51,301 nt of DNA from Kiritimatiellia bacterium (GTDB lineage: Bacteria; Verrucomicrobiota; Kiritimatiellia; RFP12; UBA1067), in NCBI GenBank assembly GCA_017631385.1, contig JAGBTH010000029.1:1-51301 (forward strand). The letters run 5' to 3'. Of the stretch, positions 6,818 through 51,301 are shown in pieces. Within the stretch, counting starts at the first letter, position 1. Each line of letters starts with the position of its first letter. Both the position numbers and the translations under genes were made by a program. The notes beneath the pieces are model-generated. The model worked only from the letters and a program-made list of their open reading frames with translations. It was not told the origin of the DNA and searched no databases.

Positions 6818-7615
6818 ATATCTCTCCTTTTTGTCTTCTATTTTACATTTTATTACTGTGTTGCAGTAACGTTCGGATTGGAGTCCGCGAATATTGTTGG
6901 ATACCAGAATCAGGATTTGACTGGATCGCAGTACAATTCTGTTGGTGCTACTTTTGTCTCGGCTGGCAAGGATACATTCAAGCTCGGCGACATTACGGTT
7001 GAGGGCTTCCAGTATGATACTGAAATTCTTCAGGTTCTCAGCACTGAAAATGCGGCTACGATTGCACAATATGTCTATGTCACTCCTGAATGGGATGAAG
7101 AAGACTTTGATGGCGATGGCGCGGCAGTTGGCTGGTGGATTAAGGGCATGGAAGGCGAAGACGAAGGTCGTGCTGACAATATTGAGTTTGCTCCAGGCCA
7201 GGCGTTTCTTGCCAATTTTGTTTATAAGAAAGCTAAAATGACATATGCTGGCGAAGTAAAGCAAGGTGCTACTGAGCTCGATTTTACTGGTAAGCAGTAT
7301 GTTTTGGTAGCTAACTTCCTCCCGAAGGACATCAAGCTTGGAGAAGTTGCTGTTGAAGGTTTCCAGTATGACACCGAAATTCTTCAGGTTTTGAGCGCTT
7401 CTAATGCGGCTACGATTGCGCAATATGTTTATGTCACTCCTGAATGGGACGAGGAAGACTTTGATGGTGATGGCGCGGCAGTTGGCTGGTGGATCAAGGG
7501 TATGGAAGGTGAAGAGGGCGGCTCTGCCAATGATGTCGTTTGGAAGGCTGGCCAGGCAATGCTCGGCAACTTTGTGTACAAGAAAGCAAAGATGACCTTC
7601 CCCTCCGCTCTCTAA
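6797..7615 (+). CDS. Tandem two-domain 'IVGY-family' protein, cassette 1 gene 1 (function unknown); 31-codon hydrophobic leader then NIVGY
   Basis: 272-aa ORF. Internal direct duplication with a 354-bp period (EGFQYDTEILQVLS...GAAVGWWIKGMEGE twice). Paralogous to 16356..17075 and to the partial gene at the window end. The start overlaps the 5' end of the recombinase-like gene, so the true start is uncertain. Confidence 0.7.
   Translation: MHNRWCHISLLFVFYFTFYYCVAVTFGLESANIVGYQNQDLTGSQYNSVGATFVSAGKDTFKLGDITVEGFQYDTEILQVLSTENAATIAQYVYVTPEWDEEDFDGDGAAVGWWIKGMEGEDEGRADNIEFAPGQAFLANFVYKKAKMTYAGEVKQGATELDFTGKQYVLVANFLPKDIKLGEVAVEGFQYDTEILQVLSASNAATIAQYVYVTPEWDEEDFDGDGAAVGWWIKGMEGEEGGSANDVVWKAGQAMLGNFVYKKAKMTFPSAL
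6889..6903 (+). repeat. 15-bp core GAATATTGTTGGATA, identical to 51156-51170 (candidate att core or recombination site)
   Basis: Exact direct repeat. In both copies it encodes (x)NIVGY, lies 70-125 bp from a divergent recombinase start, and is exactly 31 codons after an in-frame ATG. Confidence 0.6.
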
Positions 7616-7670
7616 GAGAATTTCGTACGATGCATAGTGTATCGTGCTAAAACAAAAAAGGAAACAAAAA

Positions 7671-8201
7671 ATGAAGAAAATCATGATTATGCTTAGTGCG
7701 ATCGCTCTCGCTGTTTGCGCTAATGCTGCTTCAGTAAACTGGCAGTCCGGCGCTGTCTATACGACAGACGGTACCGCTAAGGTTGGCAAGGGCAACACCG
7801 ATTACCTCGTTACCATCAACTTCTTTACGGATGCTGCTGGTGCGAACGCCGTTACTGGTTTGACGGGCGATCTTTCGCTCGGTCAGGCGGGAACTGGCTC
7901 CAAGTATTCGGGCACGGTTGATGGCTTTGCCGCTGGTACAACCTACTATACTCAGATCCTCATTACGACCGAAGGTTTTGAGGCAAAGTCTGCGATCGTC
8001 GCATTCACGACTCCCTCTAACGGAAATGTCGCCTTGAACTTCTCCGATGGTGGTGGTTTTGATACCGAGTATACCTTCAGCACTCAGACTGCTGGTGCTT
8101 GGCAGGCTACTGGTTCTTCGGGCGATGTCCCGGAGCCGACTTCTGGTCTCCTTCTCCTCGTTGGTGCTGCTGCCCTCGCTCTCAAGCGTAAGGTTGCTTA
8201 A
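7671..8201 (+). CDS. PEP-CTERM sorting-domain secreted protein (cassette 1 gene 2)
   Basis: AAGGAAA RBS. Signal peptide MKKIMIMLSAIALAVCANA. C-terminal VPEPTSGLLLLVGAAALALKRKVA is a PEP motif plus TM helix plus basic tail. Confidence 0.85.
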   Translation: MKKIMIMLSAIALAVCANAASVNWQSGAVYTTDGTAKVGKGNTDYLVTINFFTDAAGANAVTGLTGDLSLGQAGTGSKYSGTVDGFAAGTTYYTQILITTEGFEAKSAIVAFTTPSNGNVALNFSDGGGFDTEYTFSTQTAGAWQATGSSGDVPEPTSGLLLLVGAAALALKRKVA

Positions 8202-8223
8202 TCCAATAGGATAAACAAACCAT

Positions 8224-8262
8224 AAGGCCCGACCGCATCGCGCGGGCGGGCCTTTGACATTT
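8224..8262 (+). terminator. Rho-independent terminator after the PEP-CTERM gene
   Basis: 12-bp GC-rich stem with one mismatch (aaggcccgaccgc / gcgggcgggcctt) and a 5-nt loop, followed by a T-containing tail. Confidence 0.65.
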
Positions 8263-8277
8263 TAGGGGCGAAGCGTA

Positions 8278-9294
8278 ATGACATGGCAAGTTACATACAG
8301 AGATAAAAACGGATCTCGCGCATACGAATATATTGAAGCCGATTCCAAGAATGCGGTTTTTGCTGTTTTGAAGGAAAAAGGCATAAATGCGATTTCAGTA
8401 GTGGAATCTAATTCCAAGGTCAAGCGCAAGCAACCTAAAGCACGAAAGGTTTCGTCTTTCGGCATAAGGCCACCTTATATTTTAGCAGTCGGATTTTTGG
8501 CGGCCAGTGCGATATTTTTGGCAGTGTTCGTTGACTGGGGCGAAAAAGACAAAAGCACGAACGAAGAGATAAAACCCACCCCCCCAAAAAAAGAGCTCAG
8601 CGCAGTTCCGAAACATATTGAGGCACCGCGTGAACCGAAGGAAGAGTACATCAAACCTGAAGAGCCAAAGCATGTCATGGTTGACGGCAGAAAGGTTTAC
8701 AGAAGCGCGACCAATGATGTCGGCAAGGTTGTCACCAATGCATTCGGCAAGACCATGATCATTGAGCGGGTTGTTACGCCCAGCGGTCCCATGAAAAACG
8801 GAGAATCGTTGACTCCGCGCAGGATTTTCAAATATGACAGTGAAGTCGCCATCGATACGCTGATGAACATGGATGTCGGATACAAATCCCTTATGATGCT
8901 ACCAGCGAACATGGATGAAGACTTCAAGAAGGCTTTAGCGGAGAAGATTGAAATTCTGCCCGAGGACAGCGAAGATGAAATTCGGCGCAAGAACGAAATG
9001 ATAGAACTTAAAAAGGAACTTGGACAACGAATAGCAGCCGGAGAAAAGATTTCGCAGATTGCTGCCGAAACTCTCGCACATTACAATAAAATCGCAAATA
9101 TCCGCGATACTCTTTTGCAGGAAATCATCAAGTCGGAGGATGAGGGCATGAGCGGAGATGAGCTGGAGGATCTTTACGAGGCGGCAAATACGATGCTCAA
9201 GGAATATGACGCGCTGCCGATTCATTCACCGAAGGTTCGCAAAGCCATCATCAGAGAGAGGCTTGAGCGCAACAAGGCAAGGCGTAGGCAATAA
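8278..9294 (+). CDS. Single-pass membrane protein with a GspF/PilC-N-terminal-like beta-alpha-beta domain and a conserved C-terminal helical domain (cassette 1 gene 3)
   Basis: 338 aa. N-terminus MTWQVTYRDKNGSRAYEYIEADSKNAVFAVLKEKGINAISV. TM helix PPYILAVGFLAASAIFLAVFV. The C-terminal ...EILPEDSEDE...IAAGEKI pattern is shared with 10106, 12580 and 14243. Confidence 0.7.
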   Translation: MTWQVTYRDKNGSRAYEYIEADSKNAVFAVLKEKGINAISVVESNSKVKRKQPKARKVSSFGIRPPYILAVGFLAASAIFLAVFVDWGEKDKSTNEEIKPTPPKKELSAVPKHIEAPREPKEEYIKPEEPKHVMVDGRKVYRSATNDVGKVVTNAFGKTMIIERVVTPSGPMKNGESLTPRRIFKYDSEVAIDTLMNMDVGYKSLMMLPANMDEDFKKALAEKIEILPEDSEDEIRRKNEMIELKKELGQRIAAGEKISQIAAETLAHYNKIANIRDTLLQEIIKSEDEGMSGDELEDLYEAANTMLKEYDALPIHSPKVRKAIIRERLERNKARRRQ

Positions 9295-9329
9295 CAATAG
9301 AAAGAATTTAACATTAAAGGAGATTCACC

Positions 9330-10109
9330 ATGAAAACACTTATTGCGTTTTTGACAGCTTCTATGGTTACTGTCGTTTTCGCGGCAGAAGATGTCAAAGC
9401 CGAAAAGAACCAGGAAGCCAAAAAGCCAAGCATAGCACAGCGCGTAGGAGGATTTTTGATCGACTACAAGGCAGCCAGGGGCAAATACATGTTCATCAAC
9501 TGCCAGGACAAGCTCGATATGAAATTGATCAACGGTTTGGCTGTTGGACTCAAAAACGATTATTCGTGGCTTTTCGAGTGTGTTGACGGCGAAAAGTCGG
9601 TCCGTACAATCAAGGAGGTCGTGGCTCTGAAAGCGAAGCATGGCGCACTCGCAGCGACAGCGTTCGTATATTGTGACGATTTGCCTTTTGCACTTACCGT
9701 ACCAGAAGCAAATCTGTCGATTGTAAACGTAAAAGAGCTTATGGCTGACAATCCAAAGGCGATTTTGCTTGAAAACCGTCTGGTAAGAGCAACCTTGCGA
9801 GCTTTTGCCTTTTCTCTCGGAGCCGGCTATACGACTTTTGAAGCGGGAGTAATGCAACCTATCGCATCTGTGGCAGATCTCGACAGATTTTCTTCGAATT
9901 TCATTCCTCCGGACACAGCAAATGCCGCGCTTCAAAATGGAGGCAAAATCGGTTTCAAGCCATATCGCAGAACTACTTACAAGAGAGCATGCAAAGAAGG
10001 ATGGGCACCCGCGCCTACGAACGAGTTTCAAAAGGCAGTTTGGGATAAGGTACACGCTACGCCCAAAAATCCTTTGAAGATTGAATTTGACCCTAAGAAA
10101 GGTCGATGA
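9330..10109 (+). CDS. Secreted protein of unknown function (cassette 1 gene 4)
   Basis: AAAGGAG RBS and signal peptide MKTLIAFLTASMVTVVFAAE. The C-terminus EGWAPAPTNEFQKAVWDKVHATPKNPLKIEFDPKKGR is nearly the same in the paralog 13374..14225. Confidence 0.75.
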   Translation: MKTLIAFLTASMVTVVFAAEDVKAEKNQEAKKPSIAQRVGGFLIDYKAARGKYMFINCQDKLDMKLINGLAVGLKNDYSWLFECVDGEKSVRTIKEVVALKAKHGALAATAFVYCDDLPFALTVPEANLSIVNVKELMADNPKAILLENRLVRATLRAFAFSLGAGYTTFEAGVMQPIASVADLDRFSSNFIPPDTANAALQNGGKIGFKPYRRTTYKRACKEGWAPAPTNEFQKAVWDKVHATPKNPLKIEFDPKKGR

Positions 10110-10897
10110 AATATACATACGCATATAAGACCTCTGATGGGGTGCGGCATGAAGAAACAATGAATGCCGCATCTCGCGAAGAGGTTTTTACTGCGCTTCG
10201 AGCTAAGGGCATAAAGGCGATTAAGGTTGTCGCCGCTGACGGATCTAAAGCTAATGGTGAGATACGCGGCATCCGTAAACGAGTAGTTGCGGCGATTGTA
10301 ATTGCCGTTGCAGCTGCTGTTGGTGCTATAGCGTATTTCGGCGGCTCACGCTCCAAAACTAATAGCATTTCAAGCACAACCTCTAACGAAAATTCCAATG
10401 CTATTGCAGTCATCGAGACTCCATCTCAAGACAATACGAGACGACAGGTTATTGGTGATGTCGCTATAATCGAAAAAGGCATCCGCAACGGATGGAGCGA
10501 CGTCTTTGAGCTTGAGGGCGATAGGTTTCTCGCTTCATTCGCTATACCTGGCGTTAAGGCTGGACAGCGTAATACTACCGAAAAGGAATTTGCGACAGCC
10601 CTTGAGAATAAATGCGAGATTAAGCCTAACGACTCAATCGAAGTTAAACAGATAAAAGCAATGGTCGAGGGAATGAAAGAGGAGGCTCGCCGTTACATCG
10701 CTGCCGGTGGATCAATTGTCTCTTATGGTAAAAGACTTACCGAGAGACAGGACGCGGAAATTGCCATTTATGAGAGGATAAAAACTGACCTCGAAAAGGC
10801 TCATTCATCTATGAGCGAAGATGAATACATGATTTACTGGGAAAAGCGGAATGACGAACTTAGAAATCTCGGGATTAAGACGATTGGATTGGAGTGA
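10106..10897 (+). CDS. Single-pass membrane protein with a GspF-N-like domain (cassette 1 gene 5)
   Basis: 263 aa with an ATGA overlap onto the upstream gene. MKYTYAYKTSDGVRHEETMNAASREEVFTALRAKGIKAIKV followed by a TM helix. Roughly 70-80% identical by eye to 12580..13377. Confidence 0.8.
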   Translation: MKYTYAYKTSDGVRHEETMNAASREEVFTALRAKGIKAIKVVAADGSKANGEIRGIRKRVVAAIVIAVAAAVGAIAYFGGSRSKTNSISSTTSNENSNAIAVIETPSQDNTRRQVIGDVAIIEKGIRNGWSDVFELEGDRFLASFAIPGVKAGQRNTTEKEFATALENKCEIKPNDSIEVKQIKAMVEGMKEEARRYIAAGGSIVSYGKRLTERQDAEIAIYERIKTDLEKAHSSMSEDEYMIYWEKRNDELRNLGIKTIGLE

Positions 10898-10948
10898 GGG
10901 GCGGTAGAAGGTTTTAGGTGAAGGTTAGAGGTGAAGGTGAACAGCGGA
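10884..10948 (+). repeat. Direct-repeat copy A: last codons of gene 10106..10897 plus a GGTGAAGG-type purine array
   Basis: TTGGATTGGAGTGAGGGGCGGTAGAAGGTTTTAGGTGAAGGTTAGAGGTGAAGGTGAACAGCGGA recurs with a few changes at 12048-12115, and inverted at 12534-12588. Confidence 0.85.
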
Positions 10949-10960
10949 TTTTGAGATTTT

Positions 10961-11006
10961 CCCTCTTCCCTTTTCCCACTTCCCAATTCCCTCTTCCCTC
11001 TTCCCC
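10961..11006. repeat. Orphan pyrimidine array (CCCTCTTCCC-type; complement GGGAAGAG repeats)
   Basis: ccctcttcccttttcccacttcccaattccctcttccctcttcccc. No complementary partner was found nearby. Confidence 0.8.
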
Positions 11007-11052
11007 ATTTTTTTTGGTAAAATAGAGGCGTAATTTAGGTGGTAAATAAGTT

Positions 11053-11274
11053 ATGCTCAAATCTGATAAAATTTCATTTGCTGACGTATGTGCGATGGTT
11101 GACGACTATCGTAGTATGTGCTTTTGGAATATGGCTGAAGATTTTAAGCCTAAAAATGCTGGCCATTTAAAACTTGTAGCCGAGAGATTAGAAAATTACG
11201 GCGATATGGTGGCGTACAGATTCGCAGGAAGGATTAGAGAATGGCTCTCTCAGAATTCCAATCTTCAACATTAA
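11053..11274 (+). CDS. Small partner protein of the AbiEii-like nucleotidyltransferase (putative antitoxin)
   Basis: 73-aa ORF overlapping the downstream NTase gene by 34 nt. Assigned from two-gene architecture only. Confidence 0.45.
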   Translation: MLKSDKISFADVCAMVDDYRSMCFWNMAEDFKPKNAGHLKLVAERLENYGDMVAYRFAGRIREWLSQNSNLQH

Positions 11275-12047: not shown

Positions 12048-12115
12048 TTGGATTGGAGTGAGGGGGTAGATTGGAAGGTTTTAGGTGAAGGTAAAAGGTG
12101 AAGGTGAACAGTGGA
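12048..12115 (+). repeat. Direct-repeat copy B (includes the pseudo gene end TTGGATTGGAGTGA); its inner 38 bp (12074-12111) is the left arm of a perfect inverted repeat
   Basis: See 10884-10948. 12074-12111 (GAAGGTTTTAGGTGAAGGTAAAAGGTGAAGGTGAACAG) is the exact reverse complement of 12534-12571. Confidence 0.9.
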
Positions 12116-12564: not shown

Positions 12565-12588
12565 AACCTTCTATCGCCCTTACTCCAA
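12534..12588. repeat. Right inverted arm (perfect for 38 bp, imperfect extension into the stop of gene 12580..13377)
   Basis: CTGTTCACCTTCACCTTTTACCTTCACCTAAAACCTTC... is the reverse complement of 12074-12111. Confidence 0.9.
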
Positions 12589-13377
12589 ACCTACCGTCTT
12601 AATTCCTAAATTTCTTAGCTCTTCGTTGCGACGCTCCCAGACGTCCATGAACTCGTCTTCGCCGAGGGTATCTTTAGCTTTTTCAATTTCTGACTTAATC
12701 CGTTCATAGATTGCAATCTCCGCGTCTTGGCGTTCGGTGAGGCGTTTACCGTAGTCGACGATTGTGCCGCCTGCTGCGATATATTGCCGCGCTTCGTCTT
12801 TCATACCCTCGACCATCGCCTTAATCTGCTGCGCTTCAGGGGAGTCAGTAGGATTTATCTCGCACTTTGAATTTATCGCAGCTTCAAATTCTTTAAGCGA
12901 AGTATTGCGCTGACCAGCCTTAACGCCTGGTATTGCGAATGAAGCTAAGAACCTATCACCTTCGAGTGTGAAGACGTCCGCCCAACCTGTGCGAATACCC
13001 TTAGCTACGATAGCTTCATCGCCAAATACCTGACGACGCGTTTTATCGACATTCGCCAAGTTCGCATAGGGATTACTCTCAGCCTTACCTAATGATTCTT
13101 TGGTACTCTCAGGCGCGTTGGTTGCCGCACTCTTGCTTCCGCTTAAGTAGGCTACAACTCCTACACCAAGCGCAACAAACGCCACCAGAGCCGCTACAAA
13201 GCGCTTTCTAAGGCCACGAACCTCGCCGTTAGCTTTAGAGCCGTCAGCAGCGACCACTTTAATCGCTTTTATGCCGCGTTTACGCAATTCAGCGAACACC
13301 TCTTCTCTCGAAGAGGCGTTCGTTGTGTCTTCATGACGTATTCCGTCACTCGACTTATATGCGTAAGTGTATTTCAT
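12580..13377 (-). CDS. Single-pass membrane protein with a GspF-N-like domain (cassette 2 gene 5)
   Basis: 265 aa, paralog of 10106..10897 (MKYTYAYKSSDGIRHEDTTNASSREEVFAELRKRGIKAIKV...). Confidence 0.8.
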   Translation of the reverse strand: MKYTYAYKSSDGIRHEDTTNASSREEVFAELRKRGIKAIKVVAADGSKANGEVRGLRKRFVAALVAFVALGVGVVAYLSGSKSAATNAPESTKESLGKAESNPYANLANVDKTRRQVFGDEAIVAKGIRTGWADVFTLEGDRFLASFAIPGVKAGQRNTSLKEFEAAINSKCEINPTDSPEAQQIKAMVEGMKDEARQYIAAGGTIVDYGKRLTERQDAEIAIYERIKSEIEKAKDTLGEDEFMDVWERRNEELRNLGIKTVGLE

Positions 13378-14225
13378 CGACCTTTCTTAGGATCGAATTC
13401 AATCTTCATTGGATTTTTGGGGGCGGCGCGGACTTCGTCCCAGATTGCTTTCTGGTACTCGTTCGTTGGCTGGGGCGCCCAGCCTTCCATAACAGCGAGT
13501 TTGTAGGGGATGTGACGCGCTCTTTTAACGCCGAACTTAGCCATTTGAGCATACATCTTTTGGAAGTTCATTGGCTGCATAACCTGATATACGAGCGCAT
13601 CGAGTTCCTTAAGATTATAGACAGGCTGGAGTACATCGTTCTTATAAGGCGCATAACCGATACCACCTACAAAGCCGAGCGCTCTCCAAACTTCCTTAAT
13701 AAGTCTCGTTTCAGGTGCTACGGGGTCATTACCGCCGAGATAACGCTTAGCATTGATAACAGCGATACGCTCCTCGGGCATTACGCAAAGACCAGGGCAA
13801 TCGCTCGATTCAGCGATGAGAATCACATACGCGGCATTATTAGCCTTAAGCGCGGCGAGCGCTTTGGCGTATGGCTTTTCATTCGCGTTAAGCTTAGACT
13901 TATCAATCTTAACATTCGTCTTAGATAAATCGCCGAATACTTCGGCGAAGCGATCTGCCGCGATGCCGGGCTTTTCGCGTGTATCGACTACGACAACGCT
14001 TACGCCAACTGCCGCGACATCGAGAAAGCCGCCTGTCTTTTTAAGAACAGCTGGGCGATTTTCAAGTTCAGCGCGTGTTTGCTTTTTATCAGCCTTTTTC
14101 TGGCCTTCAGCCGCCTTTAGAGCTGCTGCTTCAGCCATCTTTTTAATTTGGTCTTCTTGCGAGTTGTTAGCGAGAATGGGAGCCGTGATAAGAAGCGCGG
14201 CGATTATGGCTAGTGTTGCTTTCAT
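13374..14225 (-). CDS. Secreted protein of unknown function (cassette 2 gene 4)
   Basis: 283 aa with signal peptide MKATLAIIAALLITAPILA. C-terminus shared with 9330..10109. Confidence 0.75.
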   Translation of the reverse strand: MKATLAIIAALLITAPILANNSQEDQIKKMAEAAALKAAEGQKKADKKQTRAELENRPAVLKKTGGFLDVAAVGVSVVVVDTREKPGIAADRFAEVFGDLSKTNVKIDKSKLNANEKPYAKALAALKANNAAYVILIAESSDCPGLCVMPEERIAVINAKRYLGGNDPVAPETRLIKEVWRALGFVGGIGYAPYKNDVLQPVYNLKELDALVYQVMQPMNFQKMYAQMAKFGVKRARHIPYKLAVMEGWAPQPTNEYQKAIWDEVRAAPKNPMKIEFDPKKGR

Positions 14226-14242
14226 ATTGTGAACCTTTAATC

Positions 14243-15118
14243 TTAATTGGAGTTTTTATGAGCGTCAATAATATCATTAATGTGTTTAGGAATTTTAGCG
14301 TCGGGTAAGCCTAATTCTCTAAACTTCTGATTTAAAGTGTCGCGATAAAGCGCGGCGGATTTAGCATCACCTTTTTTTAGAAATCCAACGATATCCTTTA
14401 AGGTTGACGCGGTTAAGCCCTTTTGAATAGTAGCGGTTTGGCGCATTTCCATTACAAAATCATCAAAGCTCGCGCCAGTAGTTTCCATATAATCGAGGGC
14501 GAGTTCCTTAACTTCGGCAGCTGCTGTCTTTTTACGAATGACCTCTTCTGAATCATCAGGGTTAATTGTAACAGGTTTACGAAGCATTTTCATAACTTCA
14601 GCTTTATCTAAGCCCATAAGCATTCCAGGGATAAAGTTGCCATCTTGGAGATTCATGCCGATAAGATTCTCTTCAAAGGCGTTATCGAATACTGGCTTAG
14701 GAGTAATATCTACCCAATTACCCTCGTGATCGCATTTATAGACAGCTCCATGAGAGTGTACAGTTCTAAATTCACCAGGAGCAGGAACGGGGAAGGTCAA
14801 AACGCGACCATCGGGCGTTTGCATTGTGCCAGGCTTCTTAACAAATGGGGGCTTTTCTTTTTTAGGCGCGGCGATGGGCTTCTCGGTCTTTTTAACGAGA
14901 TGGGTCGAAGCCTTAGGCGCGGGAGTGCGCTTTTTAGGGGTGTCGGTTTGCGCAATGGGCGCGGATTCGGGCTTAGAGAGGAAGAAATAAAGCACGATGG
15001 CGCCAAATAGCGCGACAAGAGCGCAAATAGCGTATGGTAGAGCGCGCAGTTTGCGCGTCAATTTAGGTGTCTCATTTTTAGGCGAATTATTCGCTCTATC
15101 TGATCCGTTCCAGCCCAT
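14243..15118 (-). CDS. Single-pass membrane protein (cassette 2 gene 3); has the C-terminal domain of the family but lacks the GspF-N-like domain
   Basis: 291 aa with TM helix LPYAICALVALFGAIVLYFFL. ...INPDDSEEVIRKK... aligns with ...ILPEDSEDEIRRK... of 8278..9294. Confidence 0.7.
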   Translation of the reverse strand: MGWNGSDRANNSPKNETPKLTRKLRALPYAICALVALFGAIVLYFFLSKPESAPIAQTDTPKKRTPAPKASTHLVKKTEKPIAAPKKEKPPFVKKPGTMQTPDGRVLTFPVPAPGEFRTVHSHGAVYKCDHEGNWVDITPKPVFDNAFEENLIGMNLQDGNFIPGMLMGLDKAEVMKMLRKPVTINPDDSEEVIRKKTAAAEVKELALDYMETTGASFDDFVMEMRQTATIQKGLTASTLKDIVGFLKKGDAKSAALYRDTLNQKFRELGLPDAKIPKHINDIIDAHKNSN

Positions 15119-15350
15119 AAGTTTTCTTTCTCTTTATTTTTTTATGTCTCACGCGAGATGCGCCGAAGATGAGCGAAGCGAATCGGAGGGTAGATTCGGC
15201 GAAGCCGAACCCGAAGGGTGCTCAAGCATCCGCGTTCGCTTTCTTTCGCGAAGTTTTTAGTGGTGGTTAGATTTTTTTGTTTGTTGTTATTTTAACGCAG
15301 AGGCGCAGAGACGCAGAGTTTTTTAATGGATTATTTAATTTTTTCTTTTT

Positions 15351-15580
15351 TTAATTAACTCCGATGGTTGTTCAAAGGGCTTACGCTAACGCTTCAGCTA
15401 GAGCTTCGCACCTTTCAACCACATTCTGTAGACTCCATAGTGTAGTTATTAGAGCGGCCTTCGGCCGAATTATGCGACGAAGTCGCACCCTTAAAAAATT
15501 TAATCCAGCACATATATAGTCGTTAGATAGTGCGAAGCAGTGAAGCGGTAGCGAGAACCCAAACGCTCGGAGTTAATTTA
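15351..15580. other. About 230-bp long imperfect hairpin (MITE-like element or structured RNA), strand undetermined
   Basis: Outer stem AATTAACTCCGA (15353-64) / TCGGAGTTAATT (15567-78). Inner helices GCTAACGCTTCAG..GCTTCGCAC / GTGCGAAGC..TGAAGCGGTAGC. Two apical mini-hairpins (CGGCC-TTC-GGCCG and TGCGAC-GAA-GTCGCA). Confidence 0.5.
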
Positions 15581-15659
15581 ATAAAATCAAAAATCTTTAA
15601 CATTCCTTTAAAAACTTTGCGGACTTCGCGTACTTTGCGTGAGTTATTTCGGACCTCTC

Positions 15660-15699
15660 AACAAAGTTAGAAAGCCCGCCCGAATAATCGGACGGGCTT
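15660..15699 (-). terminator. Rho-independent terminator after the cassette 2 PEP-CTERM gene
   Basis: Stem aagcccgcccg / cggacgggctt with one mismatch and a 6-nt loop, followed by a T-rich stretch on the minus strand. Same position as the cassette 1 terminator. Confidence 0.6.
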
Positions 15700-15755
15700 A
15701 CCGTTTTGAATACTAATGACTAATCACTAACGACTAATCACTAATACTTAACCTA

Positions 15756-16286
15756 TTAGGCGCGGCGGCGACGGAGAGCGAGGCCAGCAACGCCGAGGAG
15801 GAGGAGAAGACCAGAGGTCGGCTCCGGAGCAACCTCGAACTGGTTAGCAGCGAGATTGGCCTGCTGGTTAGCAAAACCGAAGGTCTTACCAGTGTCATTG
15901 TTATAGAGCGTCTGAGAAGCAACAGACGTGTAAGAAGCAGTCTTACCGTCAGCAGCATACATAAGAATGAACGCCTGATAAGTGTTAGCAGCATCGCCAC
16001 CAGCAGCATCATAGGTGATGCTCTTGCCAGAGTTTGCAGCAGTTGTAGTTGCAGCACCTGTTGAGCCAACCGTTCCGCTAGCGAACTGGTAAGCAGAGAT
16101 ATCCTTACCATCCTTAGCGAGAGCAGCGATTTGAGCAACAGATTCTACGCCGTTCATACCGATAATATAAACGCCATAGTCACCACCAGCGTAGTTCTTA
16201 GCACCAGCGCAGGTCCAACCTACCGCAGCAGCGTTAGCCGCAATGCCAAGCATAACAGCAACAGCCGCAATCATGATTTTCTTCAT
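15756..16286 (-). CDS. PEP-CTERM sorting-domain secreted protein (cassette 2 gene 2)
   Basis: AAAGGAAAAA RBS, signal peptide MKKIMIAAVAVMLGIAANA, C-terminal APEPTSGLLLLLGVAGLALRRRRA. Confidence 0.85.
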   Translation of the reverse strand: MKKIMIAAVAVMLGIAANAAAVGWTCAGAKNYAGGDYGVYIIGMNGVESVAQIAALAKDGKDISAYQFASGTVGSTGAATTTAANSGKSITYDAAGGDAANTYQAFILMYAADGKTASYTSVASQTLYNNDTGKTFGFANQQANLAANQFEVAPEPTSGLLLLLGVAGLALRRRRA

Positions 16287-16355
16287 TTTTATTTTTCCTT
16301 TGTTTTTGTTTTTTAGGCACGTTACACAATGCAACGCACGTAAATTGGTTTAATA

Positions 16356-17075
16356 TTAGTAAGGGCAAGCGATTTCGATATCAAAGGTAAGACCATTCAT
16401 GTTGTCAATTGCAAAACCAGCACCAGGCTGAAGAGTTACATCAACAACATTGCAACCGTCGTCTCCCCAATATGCAGTTGTAGCCTTTTCTTCAGGATCC
16501 ATAGAAGCGTCCCAATAGCAATACATTGTCTCAGGATTACCCTTAGGTCCAACAATCTGCATAACGTCACCCCAACCAACAGAACCTGCACCATCGTCAT
16601 TTAAAACAACAGCACTAAGATTAATAGGAGCGGGGAAGGGATTACCAGTCCAGTTAAGACCTTCGCGAGCGGCAAAAGTAACCTTCTCGGAAGGAACCTG
16701 GCCAGCGTTCTGAATTGCATATTCGTAGGCATTCATGTTATCAAATGCAATTCCATCACCAGCATCAAAGGATACATTAACGGCATAGCAACCATCGTCA
16801 CCCCAATATGCAGTTGTAGCCTTTTCTTCAGGATCCATTGAAGCGTCCCAATAGCAATACATTGTCTCAGGATTACCCTTAGGTCCAACAATCTGCATAA
16901 CATCACCCCAACCAACAGAACCAGCACCGCCGTCATCAAGCTTGATGTCCTGAATGTCAGTCGTGTTAGCACCAACCGTGAAGAACTGAGGAGCATACCA
17001 GTTCAAACCCTCACGAGCAGCCGTGTTATTATACCCAACAAAAGTAGCTATAGTCGAAAAAATGAATGCTGACAC
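16356..17075 (-). CDS. Tandem two-domain 'IVGY-family' protein (cassette 2 gene 1), apparently 5'-truncated
   Basis: The ORF opens only at a GTG immediately after an in-frame TGA. Just 11 residues precede FVGY, and there is no signal peptide or SD. Internal 336-bp-period duplication, about 95% identical by eye. Confidence 0.6.
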   Translation of the reverse strand: MSAFIFSTIATFVGYNNTAAREGLNWYAPQFFTVGANTTDIQDIKLDDGGAGSVGWGDVMQIVGPKGNPETMYCYWDASMDPEEKATTAYWGDDGCYAVNVSFDAGDGIAFDNMNAYEYAIQNAGQVPSEKVTFAAREGLNWTGNPFPAPINLSAVVLNDDGAGSVGWGDVMQIVGPKGNPETMYCYWDASMDPEEKATTAYWGDDGCNVVDVTLQPGAGFAIDNMNGLTFDIEIACPY

Positions 17076-48809: not shown

Positions 48810-48831
48810 ACGGCTGTTTGGCGGTTATCTT

Positions 48832-48906
48832 AGGGATGAGGGATGGGGGATGAGGGATGAGAGAAGATAAAGGGATGAGGAAAGAGGGATGAGGGATGAG
48901 AGAAGA
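48832..48906. repeat. G-rich arm (GGGATGAG-type octamers) left of the second four-helix-bundle gene
   Basis: agggatgagggatgggggatgagggatgagagaagataaagggatgaggaaagagggatgagggatgagagaagaa. Largely complementary to 49283-49389. Confidence 0.85.
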
Positions 48907-48924
48907 ATTTGATATAATAATGAA

Positions 48925-49281
48925 ATGAAAACAGATGCAATGTACAAAGAGTTGATAGTTTGGCAGCAGTCAATGGATCTTGTAGACATAATCTACAAAT
49001 TGATAAAGACTTTCCCAAAGACAGAAAACTACCGACTATGTGACCAACTCTCACGAGCAGCAGTTTCGATACCCTCAAACATTGCCGAAGGGAATGGACG
49101 CGGTACAAGACAGGACTACGCACGATTCCTTTCAATCGCGAGAGGCTCATTGTACGAAACAATGACGCAAGTCGAGATAGCCAGAAGACAAGGCTACATT
49201 GATGACATTTCAGAGATTGAATCACTCGCTGACTCAATCCGTCGAATGTTAAACTCAATGATTCATAAATTATCATCTTAA
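48925..49281 (+). CDS. Four-helix-bundle protein, 23S rRNA intervening-sequence protein family (second copy)
   Basis: YKELIVWQQS...CDQLSRAAVSIPSNIAEGNGR...FLSIARGSLYETMTQVEIARRQGY. Antisense to the phage operon. Confidence 0.85.
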   Translation: MKTDAMYKELIVWQQSMDLVDIIYKLIKTFPKTENYRLCDQLSRAAVSIPSNIAEGNGRGTRQDYARFLSIARGSLYETMTQVEIARRQGYIDDISEIESLADSIRRMLNSMIHKLSS

Positions 49282-49282
49282 C

Positions 49283-49389
49283 TCTCCTCTCATACCTCAT
49301 ATCTCATCCCTCATACCTCTTTTCTCATACTTCTTCCCTGCGGCGTAGCCGCTCCCCTCTCATCCCTCATACCTCATCCCTCATCCCTT
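49283..49389. repeat. C-rich arm (CTCATCCC/CTCATACC octamers) in two blocks split by a GCGGC-GTA-GCCGC mini-hairpin
   Basis: tctcctctcatacctcatatctcatccctcatacc...ctctcatccctcatacctcatccctcatccc. Confidence 0.85.
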
Positions 49390-49597
49390 ATCTTCCCCCA
49401 AGCGTCGAGTTACCAGAATTCTGTGACGCGCTTGAATATCGGCGATAAGTCTGACTTATCCCTCTCAGACGCTCTCGCTCCTGGGCTTGAAGAAGCTGTG
49501 CGCTCTCGTTATCTGCCGCTATGGATTTTGCAATAGCCGGAGTTACAGACGGCTCTGGTGCCGCTGTTGCGACTCTGCTACTTGAACCTTTACCCAT
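49388..49597 (-). CDS. Small phage protein (69 aa from MGKGSSS)
   Basis: The track ORF is trimmed because its N-terminal 26 residues are translated from the repeat arm. Confidence 0.45.
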   Translation of the reverse strand: MGKGSSSRVATAAPEPSVTPAIAKSIAADNESAQLLQAQERERLRGISQTYRRYSSASQNSGNSTLGGR

Positions 49598-49603
49598 GGC
49601 TTT

Positions 49604-49640
49604 AGAGGGATGAGGGATGAGTAAAGAGGGATGAGAGAAG
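49604..49640. repeat. G-rich arm of a gene-less stem
   Basis: agagggatgagggatgagtaaagagggatgagagaag, complementary in type to 49735-49799. Confidence 0.8.
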
Positions 49641-49734
49641 ATGCTTACGCACCATCTTGTTACTCTTAAGGACACTTTCGTTTTTCATGTTTATTCCTCC
49701 TATGATTTTATAAATTCGCGTTTTGCTCTCACGG

Positions 49735-49799
49735 CTTTTCTCATCCCCCATACCTCATACCTTCCAAAACTCCCCTCTCATCCCTCATACCTCATCCCT
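49735..49799. repeat. C-rich arm of the gene-less stem
   Basis: cttttctcatcccccatacctcataccttccaaaactcccctctcatccctcatacctcatccc, followed by small GC hairpins (TGCGCC-AAA-GGCGCA and GCCGC-GTCA-GCGGC). Confidence 0.8.
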
Positions 49800-49944
49800 G
49801 CGCCAAAGGCGCAAGCCGCGTCAGCGGCACTATTATCTCATAGGTTTTTTACAAGTTTCTTTTAATGTCTTTTTAAGTTCCTTTGGCTTCTCTTGGTGTC
49901 TCTTTGTGAGTTGAAAATAATAGGGAGAAAGTGTTTGACAGAGG

Positions 49945-51033
49945 TTAAAGATTAGGTATCGCATTCACTGCCATTCTAAGCGAATCTACGTTTTCGTGGT
50001 AATAATGCCGCGTCATCGCTGTAGACTCATGACCGACGATAGATTGTACGATGTGTAGCGGAACTCCTGCATTTGCAGCGAGTGAAACGAATGTATGGCG
50101 GAGTGAGTGAAATGTTGCCTCTGGTGTTTTTCTGCTACGCCCCTCAAGTAGTATCGAGGTTGTAATATTAGCTGAATCGAATATCTGAGCTATCCCCTGA
50201 CTTATTTTCCATCGAGCGCCAGTATAATCATTAGCTATTTCGGGAATAACAAAAACTCCCCTTTCAGCCTCTGGAATCTCAGAGAGTATTTCCCGTAAGG
50301 CTGGATGCAAAGGAATCGTTATTGGCCTACCGTGACTATGGCGCTTAGTCTTTCTTGGGATAAGCTGGATAATCCCTGATAGCATATTAACGCTTCTCCA
50401 TTCAAGGCGGCAACAGTCCCCAAGACGAAGCCCGGTATAAACTCCGATAGTAAAGAGAGTCTTCCACTCTTTACCCTTTAGTTCTGCGCATAGCATAAGA
50501 CGCTTTAATTCCTCTACAGTCAACTCTCTACGGCTATGAGAATCATCAGGGCGAAGCTTAACGCCTTCCCACGGATCTTCGTCGATGCCGGCTTTCTGCG
50601 CGAGGATATGGAAAATCTCACGTAATACACATACGCGATTATTATATGTTGACGCGCAATGATCGACGCGAAGACACGCGAGATACTCCGCTATAGCGTC
50701 ATGAGTAATTCCTGCTAAGTCATTTACTTCAAGATGATTCTCCTCCATCCACTTAGCAAAGTGCATCCAAACAACACGCTTTGCTGTCATTGTAGAGGGA
50801 GCGAGTTCGTTGCGGTTAGGCGACTTAATATACTCAAGCCATACCTCCGCTAAGGGTAAGCGGCGCTCCCCCAAGCCAAACGGAGCTAAGAACTTTTGCA
50901 AAAACCTCTCTGCCTTAGCCTTATCTCTTGTTCGGGTTGATCGAGAGAAGCGTTTACCGTTTATGCAGACTCTCATAGTCCAACGACCGCTTTTCTCTTG
51001 TTGTAGGTTACCCATACCTTTTTCTCGTGCCAT
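49945..51033 (-). CDS. int: Phage tyrosine integrase
   Basis: N-terminal arm-binding-type domain (GRWTMRVCINGKRFSRSTRTRDKAKAE). Catalytic region TGLRLGD...HSLRHTFVSLAANAGVPLHIVQSIVGHESTAMTRHYYH. Confidence 0.9.
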   Translation of the reverse strand: MAREKGMGNLQQEKSGRWTMRVCINGKRFSRSTRTRDKAKAERFLQKFLAPFGLGERRLPLAEVWLEYIKSPNRNELAPSTMTAKRVVWMHFAKWMEENHLEVNDLAGITHDAIAEYLACLRVDHCASTYNNRVCVLREIFHILAQKAGIDEDPWEGVKLRPDDSHSRRELTVEELKRLMLCAELKGKEWKTLFTIGVYTGLRLGDCCRLEWRSVNMLSGIIQLIPRKTKRHSHGRPITIPLHPALREILSEIPEAERGVFVIPEIANDYTGARWKISQGIAQIFDSANITTSILLEGRSRKTPEATFHSLRHTFVSLAANAGVPLHIVQSIVGHESTAMTRHYYHENVDSLRMAVNAIPNL

Positions 51034-51063
51034 ATTTCCTCCTTTAGTGTTGATTTTGAAAAT

Positions 51064-51301
51064 ATGAGTTTACCACACATTCCACACTTTACTGCACATC
51101 TTCTGCACTTTGAGGTGGTGATAAGAGGGTTGTTTTACTGCCATTTTCTGCACAGGAATATTGTTGGATATTCCACGCAGTCAATGCTTGCGGAAACTGG
51201 CTACAACTTCATTATTCCTACGTTTGTTGATGTTGGCGCCGACACTGCTACTTATGACCTCCAGAACCTGAAATTGGTTAATGCTCCTGGCGATGGCATG
51301 A
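51064..51301 (+). CDS. Partial 'IVGY-family' gene running off the right edge, with a 31-codon element-derived leader
   Basis: ATG at 51064, frame open to the window end: MSLPHIPHFTAHLLHFEVVIRGLFYCHFLHR-NIVGYSTQSMLAETGYNFIIPTFVDVGADTATYDLQNLKL... The YDLQNLKL segment resembles TDIQDIKL of 16356..17075. Confidence 0.55.
   Translation, partial: MSLPHIPHFTAHLLHFEVVIRGLFYCHFLHRNIVGYSTQSMLAETGYNFIIPTFVDVGADTATYDLQNLKLVNAPGDGM
51088..51153 (+). promoter_or_regulatory. Candidate integrase arm-type sites (direct repeats TTTACTGCACATCTTCTGCAC / TTTACTGCCATTTTCTGCAC)
   Basis: Two similar ~20-mers at 51088-51108 and 51134-51153, between the int start and the core. Confidence 0.4.
51156..51170 (+). repeat. 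15-bp core GAATATTGTTGGATA (candidate attR core), identical to 6889-6903
   Basis: Exact match. Family similarity of the downstream IVGY gene begins here. Confidence 0.6.

Follow-up and report, generated by a model that had tools for sequence, protein, structure and literature searches.

The locus and its gene copies

The window, by which we mean the whole 51,301-nucleotide stretch of DNA analysed here, contains two exact copies of GAATATTGTTGGATA, both on the plus strand (6889-6903 and 51156-51170), as an earlier note on this DNA had reported. With two mismatches permitted, two matches to this sequence were reached in 0 of 100 shuffles. Both copies encode an in-frame (x)N-I-V-G-Y, the Asn codons starting at 6890 and 51157, and upstream of each a recombinase gene is transcribed divergently, from 6817 (YR-A) and 51033 (YR-B). 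The genes entered by the 15-mers belong to a family that we refer to as IVGY. Its product is a secreted protein of two beta-sandwich domains, and the gene is usually the first of a five-gene operon, followed by a gene for a PEP-CTERM protein and three for membrane or secreted proteins. Native homologues carry a signal peptide ending in ...(E/S)SAN-IVGY. The genes and features at the locus are as follows:

5951..6817, minus strand: YR-A, a divergent tyrosine-recombinase-like gene of 288 aa
6797..6889, plus strand: leader A, 31 codons from a TTG start, the first 21 nt overlapping the start of YR-A on the opposite strand
6889..6903, plus strand: 15-mer copy 1, encoding (A)NIVGY, within a 54-nt conserved block
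6890..10897, plus strand: cassette A, a five-gene operon assigned from open reading frames, with the IVGY body (6890-7615), the PEP-CTERM protein (7644-8201; Pfam and TIGRFAM) and the membrane or secreted proteins X, Y and Z (8278-9294, 9330-10109 and 10106-10897)
12580..17075, minus strand: cassette C, an inverted second operon (open reading frames; inverted repeats I1, I2 and I5), with Z, Y and X (12580-13377, 13374-14225 and 14243-15118), the PEP-CTERM protein (15756-16334) and IVGY-C (16356-17075; N-terminus MSAFIFSTIATFVGYNN, without a signal peptide)
17032..17041, minus strand: core of copy C, TTGTTGGGTA, in the orientation opposite to that of the 15-mers
49945..51033, minus strand: YR-B, 362 aa, Pfam Phage_integrase (PF00589, 1.2e-24)
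51034..51155, plus strand: leader B, without homology to native genes; motifs CACTTTACTGCAC at 51085-51097 and the second TTTACTGC at 51134-51141
51157..51301, plus strand: beginning of IVGY copy D4, truncated by the window end; contig L009 has the gene in full, with the remaining array

The five-gene order of cassette A recurs elsewhere behind intact signal-peptide genes. L009 overlaps the window by 11,357 nt at 100% identity and holds an array of four copies, D1 to D4, one of which (D1) has a promoter, start codon and signal peptide. D1 is encoded on the minus strand, approximately 5.5 kb beyond the right end of the window, in the orientation opposite to that of the two 15-mers. A native 5' end is missing from at least five copies, of which A and C lie within the window, D4 straddles its right edge and D2 and D3 follow shortly beyond it. 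In D2, D3, D4 and C homology begins at (AATA)TTGTTGGATA, directly after a terminator or an unrelated leader, and the D copies share hundreds of bases at 87-98% identity to the right of the core. The 15-mer is not confined to recombinase-proximal copies: the 14-mer AATATTGTTGGATA also occurs in the intact gene just beyond the window; TTGTTGGATA is present in two more IVGY copies without an adjoining recombinase.

The leaders had been described as equal in length, each opened by an ATG 31 codons before the Asn. The start at 51064 is indeed ATG, whereas that at 6797 is TTG. The starts are also placed unequally, that of leader A overlapping YR-A by 21 nt and that of leader B lying 31 nt from YR-B, and the matching lengths are a coincidence, given that leaders beside orthologous recombinases span 1 to >40 codons. 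The last 12 codons of leader A match half a native signal peptide: its CVAVTFGLESA corresponds to the C-terminal half of native signal peptides, MKKMMLGLAASLCVAVTFGLESAN being an example. The hydrophobicity of leader A seems sufficient for a signal-peptide role. Because leader A possibly works as a signal peptide, copy A may not be silent. Leader B has no signal-peptide features. The TTTAC and TTACTG words reported upstream of the 15-mers do exist, as two occurrences of TTTACTGC in leader B and a TTACTG-TGTTG-CAGTAA dyad in leader A. Where a YR-B orthologue adjoins the core in three further genomes (L007/L008, L012 and L013), CTGCACTTTAC[T/G]GC is kept 60-90 nt 5' of that core; a fourth, L037, has only a loose relative of it, ACTGACCTTACTGAC.

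The two recombinases

YR-B has a shorter C-terminus than its orthologues (407-438 aa), which share 58-68% identity with it and occur in Kiritimatiellae/'Verrucomicrobia' MAGs. In four other genomes these orthologues face an IVGY copy that lacks a signal peptide, with the joint at N-x-V-G-Y. YR-A had zero matches in Pfam and NCBIfam and a weak match to the PHROG_1 integrase (3e-4). Profile-profile alignment with the YR-B family (hhalign) gave a probability of 55% and an E value of 1e-4, with the Arg/Lys/Arg/Tyr catalytic motifs in register, and a Foldseek comparison of its AF2 model (pLDDT 69) with the PDB returned tyrosine recombinases for all of the top 30 matches (Cre, XerH, lambda Int, IntI and the like). 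YR-A is thus a predicted tyrosine recombinase, recognised by profile and fold comparison only.

Homologues of YR-A fall into 747 clusters at 90% identity, and both clusters with a named source are from Kiritimatiellae MAGs. Within 450 nt of YR-A homologues, an IVGY 5' end was found in 15 of 64 5' flanks and 17 of 71 3' flanks; in these the joint falls at the CTG-N5-CAGTA motif. Since an IVGY gene is present in only about a quarter of the flanks, the YR-A family probably has further targets. A separate classical inverton with 28-nt repeats adjoins YR-A.

Two types of joint

The 5' limits of homology fall at two positions:

6853..6869, plus strand: site type 1, dyad TTACTG-TGTTG-CAGTAA, an instance of C[T/G]G-N5-CAGTA
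6856..6909, plus strand: conserved block CTGTGTTGCAGTAACGTTCGGATTGGAGTCCGCGAATATTGTTGGATACCAGAA, 54 nt, comprising the C-terminal half of the signal peptide and NIVGYQ(N)
51155..51174, plus strand: site type 2 at D4, dyad GGAATAT-TGTTGG-ATATTCC, which holds 15-mer copy 2 (51156-51170)

Similarity to the IVGY family was said to begin exactly at the 15-mer. This is correct at 51156, where the homology of D4 begins at the type-2 site, but at 6889 the DNA homology to an intact expression site begins at 6856, 34 nt 5' of the 15-mer. Site type 1 is the left limit of homology in copies adjoining YR-A. CTGNNNNNCAGTAA has three matches in the window against 0.18 expected, two of the three being both strands of the leader A dyad. 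The type-1 motif lies 37-46 nt 5' of the xVGY codon in many YR-A loci and is present in 9/70 5' and 11/74 3' YR-A flanks (background, 0.009 per 200 nt). Copy A, L019 and the intact expression site of L100/L099 have near-identical versions of the 54-nt block; the DNA on either side of it is unrelated, and it leads into three different gene bodies. An expression site matching the type-1 block of copy A was found only in the close relative L100/L099, and not in the examined DNA of the window's own genome.

In four other genomes the joints on the YR-B side lie at AAC[G/A]TTGTCGGCTAT (N-x-V-G-Y), which in L012 is also the precise end of the contig. Of the two 15-mers, the one at 51156 is itself a type-2 joint, and that at 6889 sits in the conserved block to the right of a type-1 joint; for copy A, exchange is possible at the type-2 core as well. 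The type-2 core DNA varies with synonymous codon usage, three variants coexisting in one species. A classical tyrosine recombinase normally requires identity in the overlap region, and this variation weighs against exchange by such an enzyme. Across many independent leaders and species the joint positions are constant, and they sort by the type of the adjoining recombinase.

Rearrangements between assemblies

Alternative linkages, each from a different sample or strain, were seen at these joints. L100/L099, with a promoter and a full signal peptide, and L101/L102, with a leader ending in ...SATIQPFN, precede one common operon: starting at the Val codon their identity is 100% over 3 kb or more, and upstream it is 23-27%. 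In L103 the leader of L101/L102 is joined to the A body of the window (98% identity over 1.1 kb). The only sequence common to the joints of L100-L103 and the window is GTNGGNTAY(CAGAA). The promoter and signal peptide of L002 are 98-100% identical to those of L011, identity falling to approximately 70% past the core, and within clusters formed at 90% identity a single body occurs with four or five distinct N-termini. In addition, a segment of approximately 950 nt, which includes the promoter plus the signal peptide's N-terminal half and stands between two divergent IVGY genes, is inverted in L081 relative to L075, with collinear flanks. Contigs break at or just 5' of the cores, and YR-A contigs are mostly just 1-1.5 kb long; both are as variable junctions would give. 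Among four assemblies of the window's own strain there was no rearrangement except a homologous exchange between D1 and D4, whose C-terminal halves are exchanged between assemblies that are otherwise 100% identical, without inversion of the intervening DNA.

A proposed model and its alternatives

In the reading that we propose, and to which we assign a probability of about 0.78, the two 15-mers mark joints in a shufflon-type system that shuffles DNA among multiple genes by means of tyrosine recombinases. This reading corresponds to one of three alternatives in the earlier note, in which the cores are the recombination sites of cassette switching, and it is supported by a single expression site with at least five copies lacking a native start, by bodies and flanks of 98-100% identity that occur in changing combinations with the break at the core, and by the inverted promoter segment. 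In our model, conservative site-specific recombination at short sites in the first ~35 codons would place another gene body on the expression site, changing the exported variant. Between oppositely oriented sites the outcome would be inversion, and between direct sites excision or re-insertion. The type-2 exchange, beside YR-B, would take place at the N-x-V-G-Y codons, just past the likely signal-peptide cleavage site, with a crossover within GTNGGNTAY that overlaps the 3' end of the 15-mer. The type-1 exchange, beside YR-A, would use C[T/G]G-N5-CAGTA in the hydrophobic part of the signal peptide, ~40 nt upstream. From the sequence comparisons, YR-A and YR-B probably catalyse these exchanges, each at the type of site that it adjoins; switching may be reversible and frequent within a population, and export would be limited to the copy at the expression site.

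The exchange could be real and yet come from general homologous recombination of the RecA type, or from gene conversion, acting on the conserved 5' sequences; Campylobacter fetus sap and Neisseria pilE/pilS are examples of such exchange. YR-A and YR-B would then serve other targets, for example the inverton with 28-nt repeats, and the 15-mer would be a mere edge of homology. The exchange of D1 and D4 C-terminal halves without inversion, the extended identity among the D copies, the synonymous variation in the core and the presence of the separate inverton beside YR-A are all consistent with this. However, the partners at the L103, L101, L100 and window joints have only ~9-14 nt in common, with unrelated DNA on both sides, which is too short for efficient homologous recombination; the type-1 block is merely 54 nt long and non-homologous on either side; and joint positions are constant across leaders and species and sorted by recombinase type. 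We therefore regard this explanation as unlikely.

For the two other alternatives in the earlier note a second pair of direct repeats is relevant, which brackets nearly the same 44 kb as the 15-mers (90% identity over 29 nt, 17 nt exact, 43,994 nt apart):

5928..5956: first 29-nt repeat, extending over the stop codon of YR-A and including the exact 17-mer GAGAAAGTGTTTGACAG at 5931-5947
49922..49950: second 29-nt repeat, extending over the stop codon of YR-B and including the exact 17-mer at 49925-49941

The first holds that each recombinase is the integrase of an element inserted into the 5' end of an IVGY gene, with the 15-mer as att core and an element-borne leader replacing the 5' end. A core lies beside each recombinase, the cores are direct, the 29-nt repeats follow both recombinase stop codons, and a phage structural block lies between the cores. 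Nevertheless, orthologues of the two recombinases stand in tandem in the chromosome of L013 and next to each other in L018, both places free of phage genes, the YR-B orthologue of L012 is followed by the ribosomal protein genes rplM/rpsI, and IMG/VR contains no relative of either recombinase. The same joint is present at D2, D3 and C, all without an integrase, and leader A is half a native signal peptide rather than element DNA. The interval contains no terminase, a search for tRNA genes gave none, and no empty/occupied site pair or presence/absence pattern of an element was found. Integrated elements are thus a very improbable source of these joints.

The second holds that the 44 kb is a single composite unit, carrying the phage-like block, that loops out and re-inserts through the direct cores or the direct 29-mers. 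Nearly the same interval is bracketed by both repeat pairs, tyrosine recombinases excise between direct sites, and looping-out between the two direct cores could in principle occur. The sole TerL-like gene lies outside the interval, beyond the D array; the separation of the phage block from it by the D array and YR-B indicates that rearrangements have moved these pieces. The content is mixed, however, comprising two host-type IVGY operons, AbiE, toxin-antitoxin genes and, of phage genes, structural ones only. The arrangement is unchanged in independent overlapping assemblies (L001, window 1-17615; L009/L010, 39945-51301), and no assembly missing the interval was found, so that we give this alternative little credence.

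That nothing moves, the 15-mer being conserved coding sequence of paralogues and A and D4 ordinary genes with unusual starts, accords with the family-wide conservation of NIVGY at the protein level, the in-frame starts of both copies and the hydrophobic leader A, but is scarcely credible given identical bodies after unrelated flanks, identical flanks before unrelated bodies, the inversion between L075 and L081, a leader B without signal-peptide features, and intact family members that start otherwise than with either leader plus NIVGY.

Relation to known systems

The shuffling system that we propose closely resembles the susC shufflon of Bacteroides thetaiotaomicron (BT1032-BT1053), in which the tyrosine recombinase BT1041 is associated with a 7 bp core near the 5' end and all combinations have been observed (Porter et al., bioRxiv 10.1101/521070). 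Both have paralogous surface-protein operons of which a single one has a full 5' end, the others being 5'-truncated, a tyrosine recombinase gene within the locus, and a very short 5'-proximal core. In contrast to the SusC/D operons of another phylum, the operons here are IVGY/PEP-CTERM operons of Kiritimatiellae, what is swapped on is a promoter with a signal peptide and not an anti-sigma contact domain, there are two recombinases very different in sequence and two joint positions, and the copies are spread across tens of kilobases, a phage-like block lying between them. Compared with the susC shufflon, the recombinase dependence proposed here is read from sequence.

The variable lipoprotein systems of Mycoplasma (M. 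pulmonis vsa/HvsR, M. agalactiae vpma/Xer1 and M. bovis vsp) likewise have one expression site as the source of the signal peptide, start codon and promoter, numerous silent genes that lack all three, a conserved site at the 5' end of every copy and an adjacent tyrosine recombinase. In those systems one Xer-like tyrosine recombinase inverts the DNA between sites of a single type, of ~30-34 bp and well conserved, whereas the type-2 core here is down to 9-14 nt with synonymous variation, and a second site lies inside the signal-peptide coding region. The S-layer inversion of C. fetus sap is RecA-dependent and uses ~600 bp of conserved 5' sequence. It shares with L081, L075 and L092 an invertible segment with an outward promoter between opposed homologues with conserved 5' ends; unlike sap, several joints here have 9-54 nt in common, and dedicated tyrosine recombinases are linked to the loci. 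In the R64 shufflon, Rci acts at sfx sites to swap C-terminal segments of PilV on a plasmid. A tyrosine recombinase, multiple asymmetric sites with one conserved arm and the reshuffling of variable parts of a surface protein gene are common to both, but at the present locus it is N-terminal expression parts that are exchanged, and they are joined to entire chromosomal operons.

Gene-altering invertons, some of them intragenic, are common in gut bacteria according to metagenomic surveys (PMC9881135, PMC10028968). As at our loci, their inverted repeats lie within coding sequence and inversion recodes or reconnects genes; PMC9881135 makes no mention of Kiritimatiellae, Verrucomicrobia, PEP-CTERM or signal peptides.

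The principle is already known; what is new is the bacterial group, the gene family and one of the two recombinases, and both the IVGY family and the YR-A recombinase family appear to be undescribed so far. For an uncultured gut bacterium of the Kiritimatiellae, the system would mean that one copy bearing a promoter and an export signal receives alternative versions of a secreted protein.

IVGY genes and their expression site

Homologues of the gene at 6890-7615 typically carry a signal peptide ending in ...(E/S)SAN directly before IVGY, for example MKKLIALAAVATCGAALAVESAN/IVGYQN, and since these signal peptides end at SAN-IVGY, NIVGY most likely opens the mature protein, the cleavage point being judged by eye. 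An IVGY gene is usually the first of a five-gene operon; a PEP-CTERM gene comes second, and the other three genes encode membrane or secreted proteins, of which two have a T2SSF_N-like N-terminus. The IVGY genes, recombinase genes and joint sequences of the window are as follows:

5951-6817, minus strand: YR-A, tyrosine-recombinase-like gene
6853-6869: dyad TTACTG-TGTTG-CAGTAA, containing the type 1 joint motif CTGTGTTGCAGTA
6890-10897, plus strand: operon A, an IVGY operon
12580-17075, minus strand: operon C, an IVGY operon inverted relative to A
17032-17041, minus strand: start of copy C, ...ACTTTT followed by GTTGGGTAT
49945-51033, minus strand: YR-B, recombinase gene
51155-51174: dyad GGAATAT-TGTTGG-ATATTCC at the core of copy D4, read directly from the sequence
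Right edge, first 145 nt in the window: D4, the third IVGY gene

Across 11,357 nt contig L009 matches the window at 100% identity, and it reveals the DNA past 51301, namely D4 with its PEP-CTERM gene and then the oppositely oriented pairs D3, D2 and D1. Among the D copies only D1 has a start codon and signal peptide (MNIKNFAMASVLGLAAAVTVNAEAEGVSSAN/IVGYSTQ...). D2 and D3 follow directly on the terminator of the gene before them, their homology starting at (TATG)TTGTTGGATA, and D4 follows leader B, the DNA 5' of its core, its homology starting at AATATTGTTGGATA; A, C, D2, D3 and D4 have no native start. All six IVGY copies carry (AATA)TTGTTGGATA or TTGTTGGGTA at the same 5' position, on the plus strand of the window frame in A and D4 and on the minus strand in C, D1, D2 and D3. 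Judged from the layout of A and C in the window and of D1-D4 in L009, the genome has a single expression site, and at least five other copies lack a native start.

The model of mature IVGY-A is of high confidence (pLDDT 89) and predicts two beta-sandwich domains; a fold search with it gave no significant match in the PDB. Inside each IVGY gene a stretch is duplicated in tandem with 87-89% DNA identity (6978-7161/7332-7515 and 16394-16600/16730-16936), which agrees with the two predicted domains. Elsewhere in L009, at 989-1558 between a TerL-like gene and the X-Y-Z genes, a signal peptide is followed by NPIVGSEN and an unrelated 171-aa body. NPIVGSEN resembles SAN-IVGY, and this gene may belong distantly to the IVGY family or be one more target of the proposed switch.

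Two types of joint beside two recombinases

The 15-mer GAATATTGTTGGATA, singled out in the earlier note, occurs exactly twice in the window, at 6889-6903 and 51156-51170, both on the plus strand and both inverted relative to D1, and none of 100 shuffles contained two matches, even with two mismatches allowed. As the note also stated, NIVGY is read in frame from the 15-mer in both places (Asn codons at 6890 and 51157). Similarity to the family was said to begin exactly at the 15-mer, which is true at 51156 but not at 6889, because a 54-nt block running from 6856 to 6909 is common to copy A, to contigs L100/L099 and to contig L019. This block is nearly identical in copy A, in the intact expression site of L100/L099 and in L019, with unrelated DNA to its left, YR-A in the window and L019 versus the promoter and N-terminal signal-peptide half in L100/L099, and three different bodies to its right. 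Leader A, the DNA 5' of the core of copy A, ends in ...YYCVAVTFGLESAN, of which CVAVTFGLESAN corresponds to the second, C-terminal half of signal peptides in native genes, for example MKKMMLGLAASLCVAVTFGLESAN; leader A is hydrophobic and could conceivably act as a signal peptide. Where an ATG had been placed at 6797 the in-frame start is TTG, and the equal 31-codon leaders are a coincidence, leaders beside orthologous recombinases spanning from 1 to more than 40 codons.

YR-B orthologues with 58-68% identity occur in MAGs of Kiritimatiellae and 'Verrucomicrobia' from gut and rumen. Three other genomes repeat the layout of the window beside YR-B: the start codon, about 70 nt, CTGCACTTTAC[T/G]GC, 60-90 nt and then AAC[G/A]TTGTCGGCTAT, which encodes N-x-V-G-Y and leads into an IVGY body without a signal peptide. 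A fourth genome, L037, has the same core beside YR-B, with a leader motif that is no more than loosely related. For YR-A we compared 80 metagenomic loci, counting only those with enough 5' (64) or 3' (71) flank: an IVGY 5' end lies within 450 nt of YR-A in 15 of the 64 5' flanks and 17 of the 71 3' flanks, and three loci have outward-pointing IVGY 5' ends on both sides. In these copies the edge of homology falls in the signal-peptide region, at the motif C[T/G]G-N5-CAGTA. The motif precedes the xVGY codon by 37-46 nt and is found in 9/70 and 11/74 YR-A flanks against a background of 0.009 per 200 nt. Given these different homology edges beside YR-A and YR-B, there are two types of joint, type 1 in the signal-peptide region and type 2 at the N-x-V-G-Y codons, each linked with one recombinase family, and the linkage between recombinase and IVGY copy is kept in other genomes for both. 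In L013 a YR-A orthologue (70% identity) lies 66 nt after YR-B, with IVGY operons around and phage genes absent; the two orthologues are also neighbours in L018, and in L012 rplM and rpsI come after YR-B.

YR-A as a tyrosine-recombinase-like protein

The recombinase reported beside each core is clear for YR-B, which matches PF00589 (Phage_integrase, 1e-24), and less so for YR-A, which has no Pfam or NCBIfam match. YR-A and YR-B share no BLASTP similarity, and the link between them came only from profile-profile comparison and a fold search. The family profiles align over 214 columns (probability 55%, E 1e-4), pairing MRNGD with LRLGD, PHKT with PxKTK, ELRK with SLRH and RYY with RHYY, such that Arg154, Lys181, Arg240 and Tyr270/271 of YR-A align with YR-B counterparts among the catalytic R-K-H-R-H/W-Y, the two classical His positions apparently being Tyr237 and Asp262/263. 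In an alignment of 27 homologues Arg154, Lys181, Tyr237-Glu-Leu-Arg240 and Tyr270/271 are invariant or nearly so. The AlphaFold model of YR-A (32 sequences) is of moderate confidence (pLDDT 69, C-terminal third weak) and has the predicted two-domain fold of the Cre/Xer/lambda Int type. In a Foldseek search of the PDB its top 30 matches are tyrosine recombinases throughout, among them Cre/Tre, XerH, XerA, lambda Int, IntI and the P2 and Brujita integrases, with topoisomerase IB next; the top 27 have probabilities of at least 0.9 and TM scores of 0.32-0.48. An hmmsearch of PDB sequences with the YR-A profile gave no match, as with Pfam. We accept YR-A as a divergent tyrosine-recombinase-like protein. 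Its family comprises at least 747 clusters at 90% identity, none with a Pfam domain, and source names are attached to two clusters only, both from Kiritimatiellae MAGs. From the alignments, the active-site positions of this family are apparently non-canonical.

Alternative linkages

Between samples or strains, the only level at which alternative linkages are seen, the same operon stands behind a promoter and full signal peptide in L100/L099 and behind a leader ending in ...LFPIILPSATIQPFN in L101/L102. Starting at the Val codon of VGY, L100 and L101 agree at 100% over 3 kb or more, versus 23-27% upstream of it, which is the random level, and the same genes continue for more than 8 kb. In L103 the leader of L101/L102, here the IQPF leader, is joined to GTCGGGTAC and the A body, the body being 98% identical to 6896-7995 of the window; the A body is known behind two flanks and the IQPF leader before two unrelated bodies. 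The only DNA in common at the joint of L100-L103 and the window is GTNGGNTAY(CAGAA), and the core codons come in mixed sets (GTA GGG TAT, GTC GGA TAT, GTC GGG TAC and GTT GGA TAC), as expected if crossovers lie inside GTNGGNTAY. Within protein clusters at 90% identity, one body has four or five different N-termini, including two or three different complete signal peptides, and L002 and L011 share promoter and signal peptide at 98-100% identity and are about 70% identical just past the core.

One inversion is seen between contigs. L081 and L075, which are about 90% identical, differ in the orientation of a segment of about 950 nt between divergent IVGY genes, with both flanks collinear; the segment contains the promoter, the N-terminal signal-peptide half and an NYN-domain gene, and L092 has the same layout. 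Contigs often stop at the cores or a little way before them (exactly at ...GTTGTCGGCTAT in L012), and YR-A contigs are mostly 1-1.5 kb long; breaks at the cores are only an indirect hint of reversible, recombinase-dependent switching.

In four assemblies of the window's own strain no other arrangement was found beyond an exchange between D1, the expression site, and the silent D4, which have swapped their C-terminal repeat halves (L009 4278-5090 and 9155-9970; L010 1370-2065; P0081). The exchange lies between assemblies that are 100% identical nearby, and the intervening DNA is not inverted, so homologous exchange or gene conversion adds mosaics on top of the proposed cassette switching.

Repeats near the recombinase genes

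A 29-nt direct repeat (5928-5956 and 49922-49950; 90% identity, 17 nt exact, 43,994 nt apart) overlaps the stop codons of YR-A and YR-B. With 45-75 aa fewer than its orthologues, YR-B looks as though the 3' flank of YR-A had taken the place of its own tail. In another species a motif akin to the repeat lies after an orthologue of YR-A (L086) and after a fragment of YR-B (L018), and in L019, whose YR-A is 95% identical, similarity ends at TAACCCCTG.

A perfect 28-nt inverted repeat (4014-4041 and 5393-5420) surrounds a 1.35-kb segment (4042-5392) with a basic 314-aa ORF (4320-5264, minus strand) that has no family match, and each repeat holds a lox-like dyad, AGAATTTT-CCGCAT-AAAATTCT. L046 (about 73% identical DNA) conserves 27 of the 28 nt and has the ORF in the opposite orientation relative to YR-A. 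Repeats and segment probably make up an inverton of their own, immediately upstream of the gene for a 1116-aa surface protein (567-3917). Sequences like the spacer and arm of the repeat (GATTTTTCCGCATTGAATTC) occur at about 4128 in L054 and about 389 in L057, in leaders upstream of IVGY copies beside YR-A in another species, which hints at a relationship between this inverton site and the leaders of IVGY genes.

Further repeats lie in the regions 48832-49806, 30132-30291 and 10899-12579. Short G-rich repeats, AGGGATG-like and GAAGGTG-like, form arrays around both genes that encode four-helix proteins of the 23S-rRNA-IVS (bAvd-like) kind (12160-12564 and 48925-49281), and the AGGGATG-like repeat is also found within the giant gene, there encoding peptide repeats of the SPIPHPS type. 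A 49-nt inverted repeat (92%; 10899-10947 and 12531-12579) brackets the AbiEii and IVS genes between cassettes A and C.

Discussion

We propose that conservative site-specific recombination at short sites would reconnect IVGY gene bodies to the expression site. Inverted sites would give inversions, D1 with D4 over about 5.5 kb and D1 with A over about 50 kb, and excision would follow from sites in direct orientation, as the two 15-mers are. The locus has the make-up of a shufflon-type system for multigene phase variation by 5'-end swapping: one promoter-linked paralogue, a short conserved 5' site in both orientations, a recombinase in the locus and alternative linkages. We infer that YR-A and YR-B catalyse the exchange, and which of the two takes which site; their operon arrangement in L013 suggests that they act together. 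Such switching would presumably be reversible and frequent within a population, and export would presumably be limited to the expression-site copy.

RecA-type homologous recombination at the joints, as in cassette exchange of the sap or pilE/pilS type, is a less likely alternative. It also acts on these genes, given that homology of hundreds of bp holds among the D copies, where D1 and D4 are mosaics, and that their C-terminal halves were exchanged without inversion. However, it cannot easily explain the short joints: where the A body, body 6, the expression site and the IQPF leader are joined, only 9-54 nt are common, the flanks are unrelated, and the long homology that RecA-dependent cassette exchange has at its exchange point is absent.

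The view that the recombinases are integrases of elements inserted in the 5' ends of IVGY genes is weakened. Direct repeats are present, but the orthologues of both recombinases are chromosomal, tandem and away from phage genes, the joint is also found at copies without an integrase, no empty site was found, and scans of IMG/VR with YR-A and YR-B returned no relatives; the window has no tRNA genes. The features of an integrative element or prophage, that is a discrete element, att repeats and empty sites in relatives, were not found together. The suggestion that the 44 kb between the cores form one composite unit is weakened by the same facts on the recombinases and, like the integrase view, by what the interval holds: two operons of host type, genes for AbiEii and for toxin-antitoxin systems, and a structural block of podovirus type.

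This podovirus-type block and a TerL-like gene occupy 19756-49300 of the window and 1-916 of L009, respectively. The block encodes a portal, a scaffold-like protein, a capsid, the two tail tube proteins (A and B), internal proteins and a polyvalent protein of 4623 aa in which RadC/JAB-like and PRTase-like motifs occur, and has no terminase or replication genes. The 44-kb interval likewise has no terminase, the only TerL-like gene (a weak Terminase_6C match) lying in L009 about 10 kb to the right, with the D array and YR-B between it and the portal. Relatives of the portal include phiV10 and Pelagibacter podophages, and those in IMG/VR are distant (21-22% identity), with surroundings that were uninformative. 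No single inversion between known cores restores the TerL-portal order. We rejected a prophage with YR-B as its integrase, because YR-B orthologues lie in chromosomes free of phage genes and the TerL-like gene lies outside the interval; for the same reasons, the 29-nt repeats after both stop codons are unsupported as att sites used by YR-A.

A bolder reading, which we consider unlikely, is a two-tier combinatorial switch in which two tyrosine recombinases act at two nested sites in one gene family and also move prophage DNA. The recombinases, unrelated-looking and encoded as an operon in some relatives, would include one from a large undescribed family with an active site apparently unlike the classical one. 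The sites would be nested within the first 35 codons, one swapping promoters and signal-peptide halves and the other mature bodies. With copies separated by tens of kilobases, large stretches of the chromosome, the phage-derived structural block among them, would likewise be inverted or looped out through these sites. If this were true, the shufflon would double as a mover of prophage DNA.

The logic of a single expression site is shared with Mycoplasma vsa, vpma and vsp and with C. fetus sap. Mycoplasma and Bacteroides already provide established cases in which a tyrosine recombinase swaps a promoter and 5' end onto alternative bodies. Of the systems described, the BT1032-53 shufflon of B. 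thetaiotaomicron is the closest, with two of three susC genes 5'-truncated, a tyrosine recombinase in the locus and crossover within 7 bp (10.1101/521070). A systematic survey of gene-altering inversions mentions neither Kiritimatiellae nor the IVGY family (PMC9881135), and we found no description of the present system in the literature. What is new is the phylum and the family of genes involved, a YR-A family so far unrecognised, and the two nested joint positions with two recombinases.

The finding exposes a large recombinase family (at least 747 clusters) missed by current domain libraries. It also accounts for the assembly breaks at these loci, and the junction sequences can be searched for in existing long-read metagenomes. 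Furthermore, it names the family that is varied, a secreted two-beta-sandwich protein with no solved relative and a PEP-CTERM protein next to it. This would be the first described programmed antigen or surface variation in Kiritimatiellae, which are common in gut and rumen and essentially uncultured.
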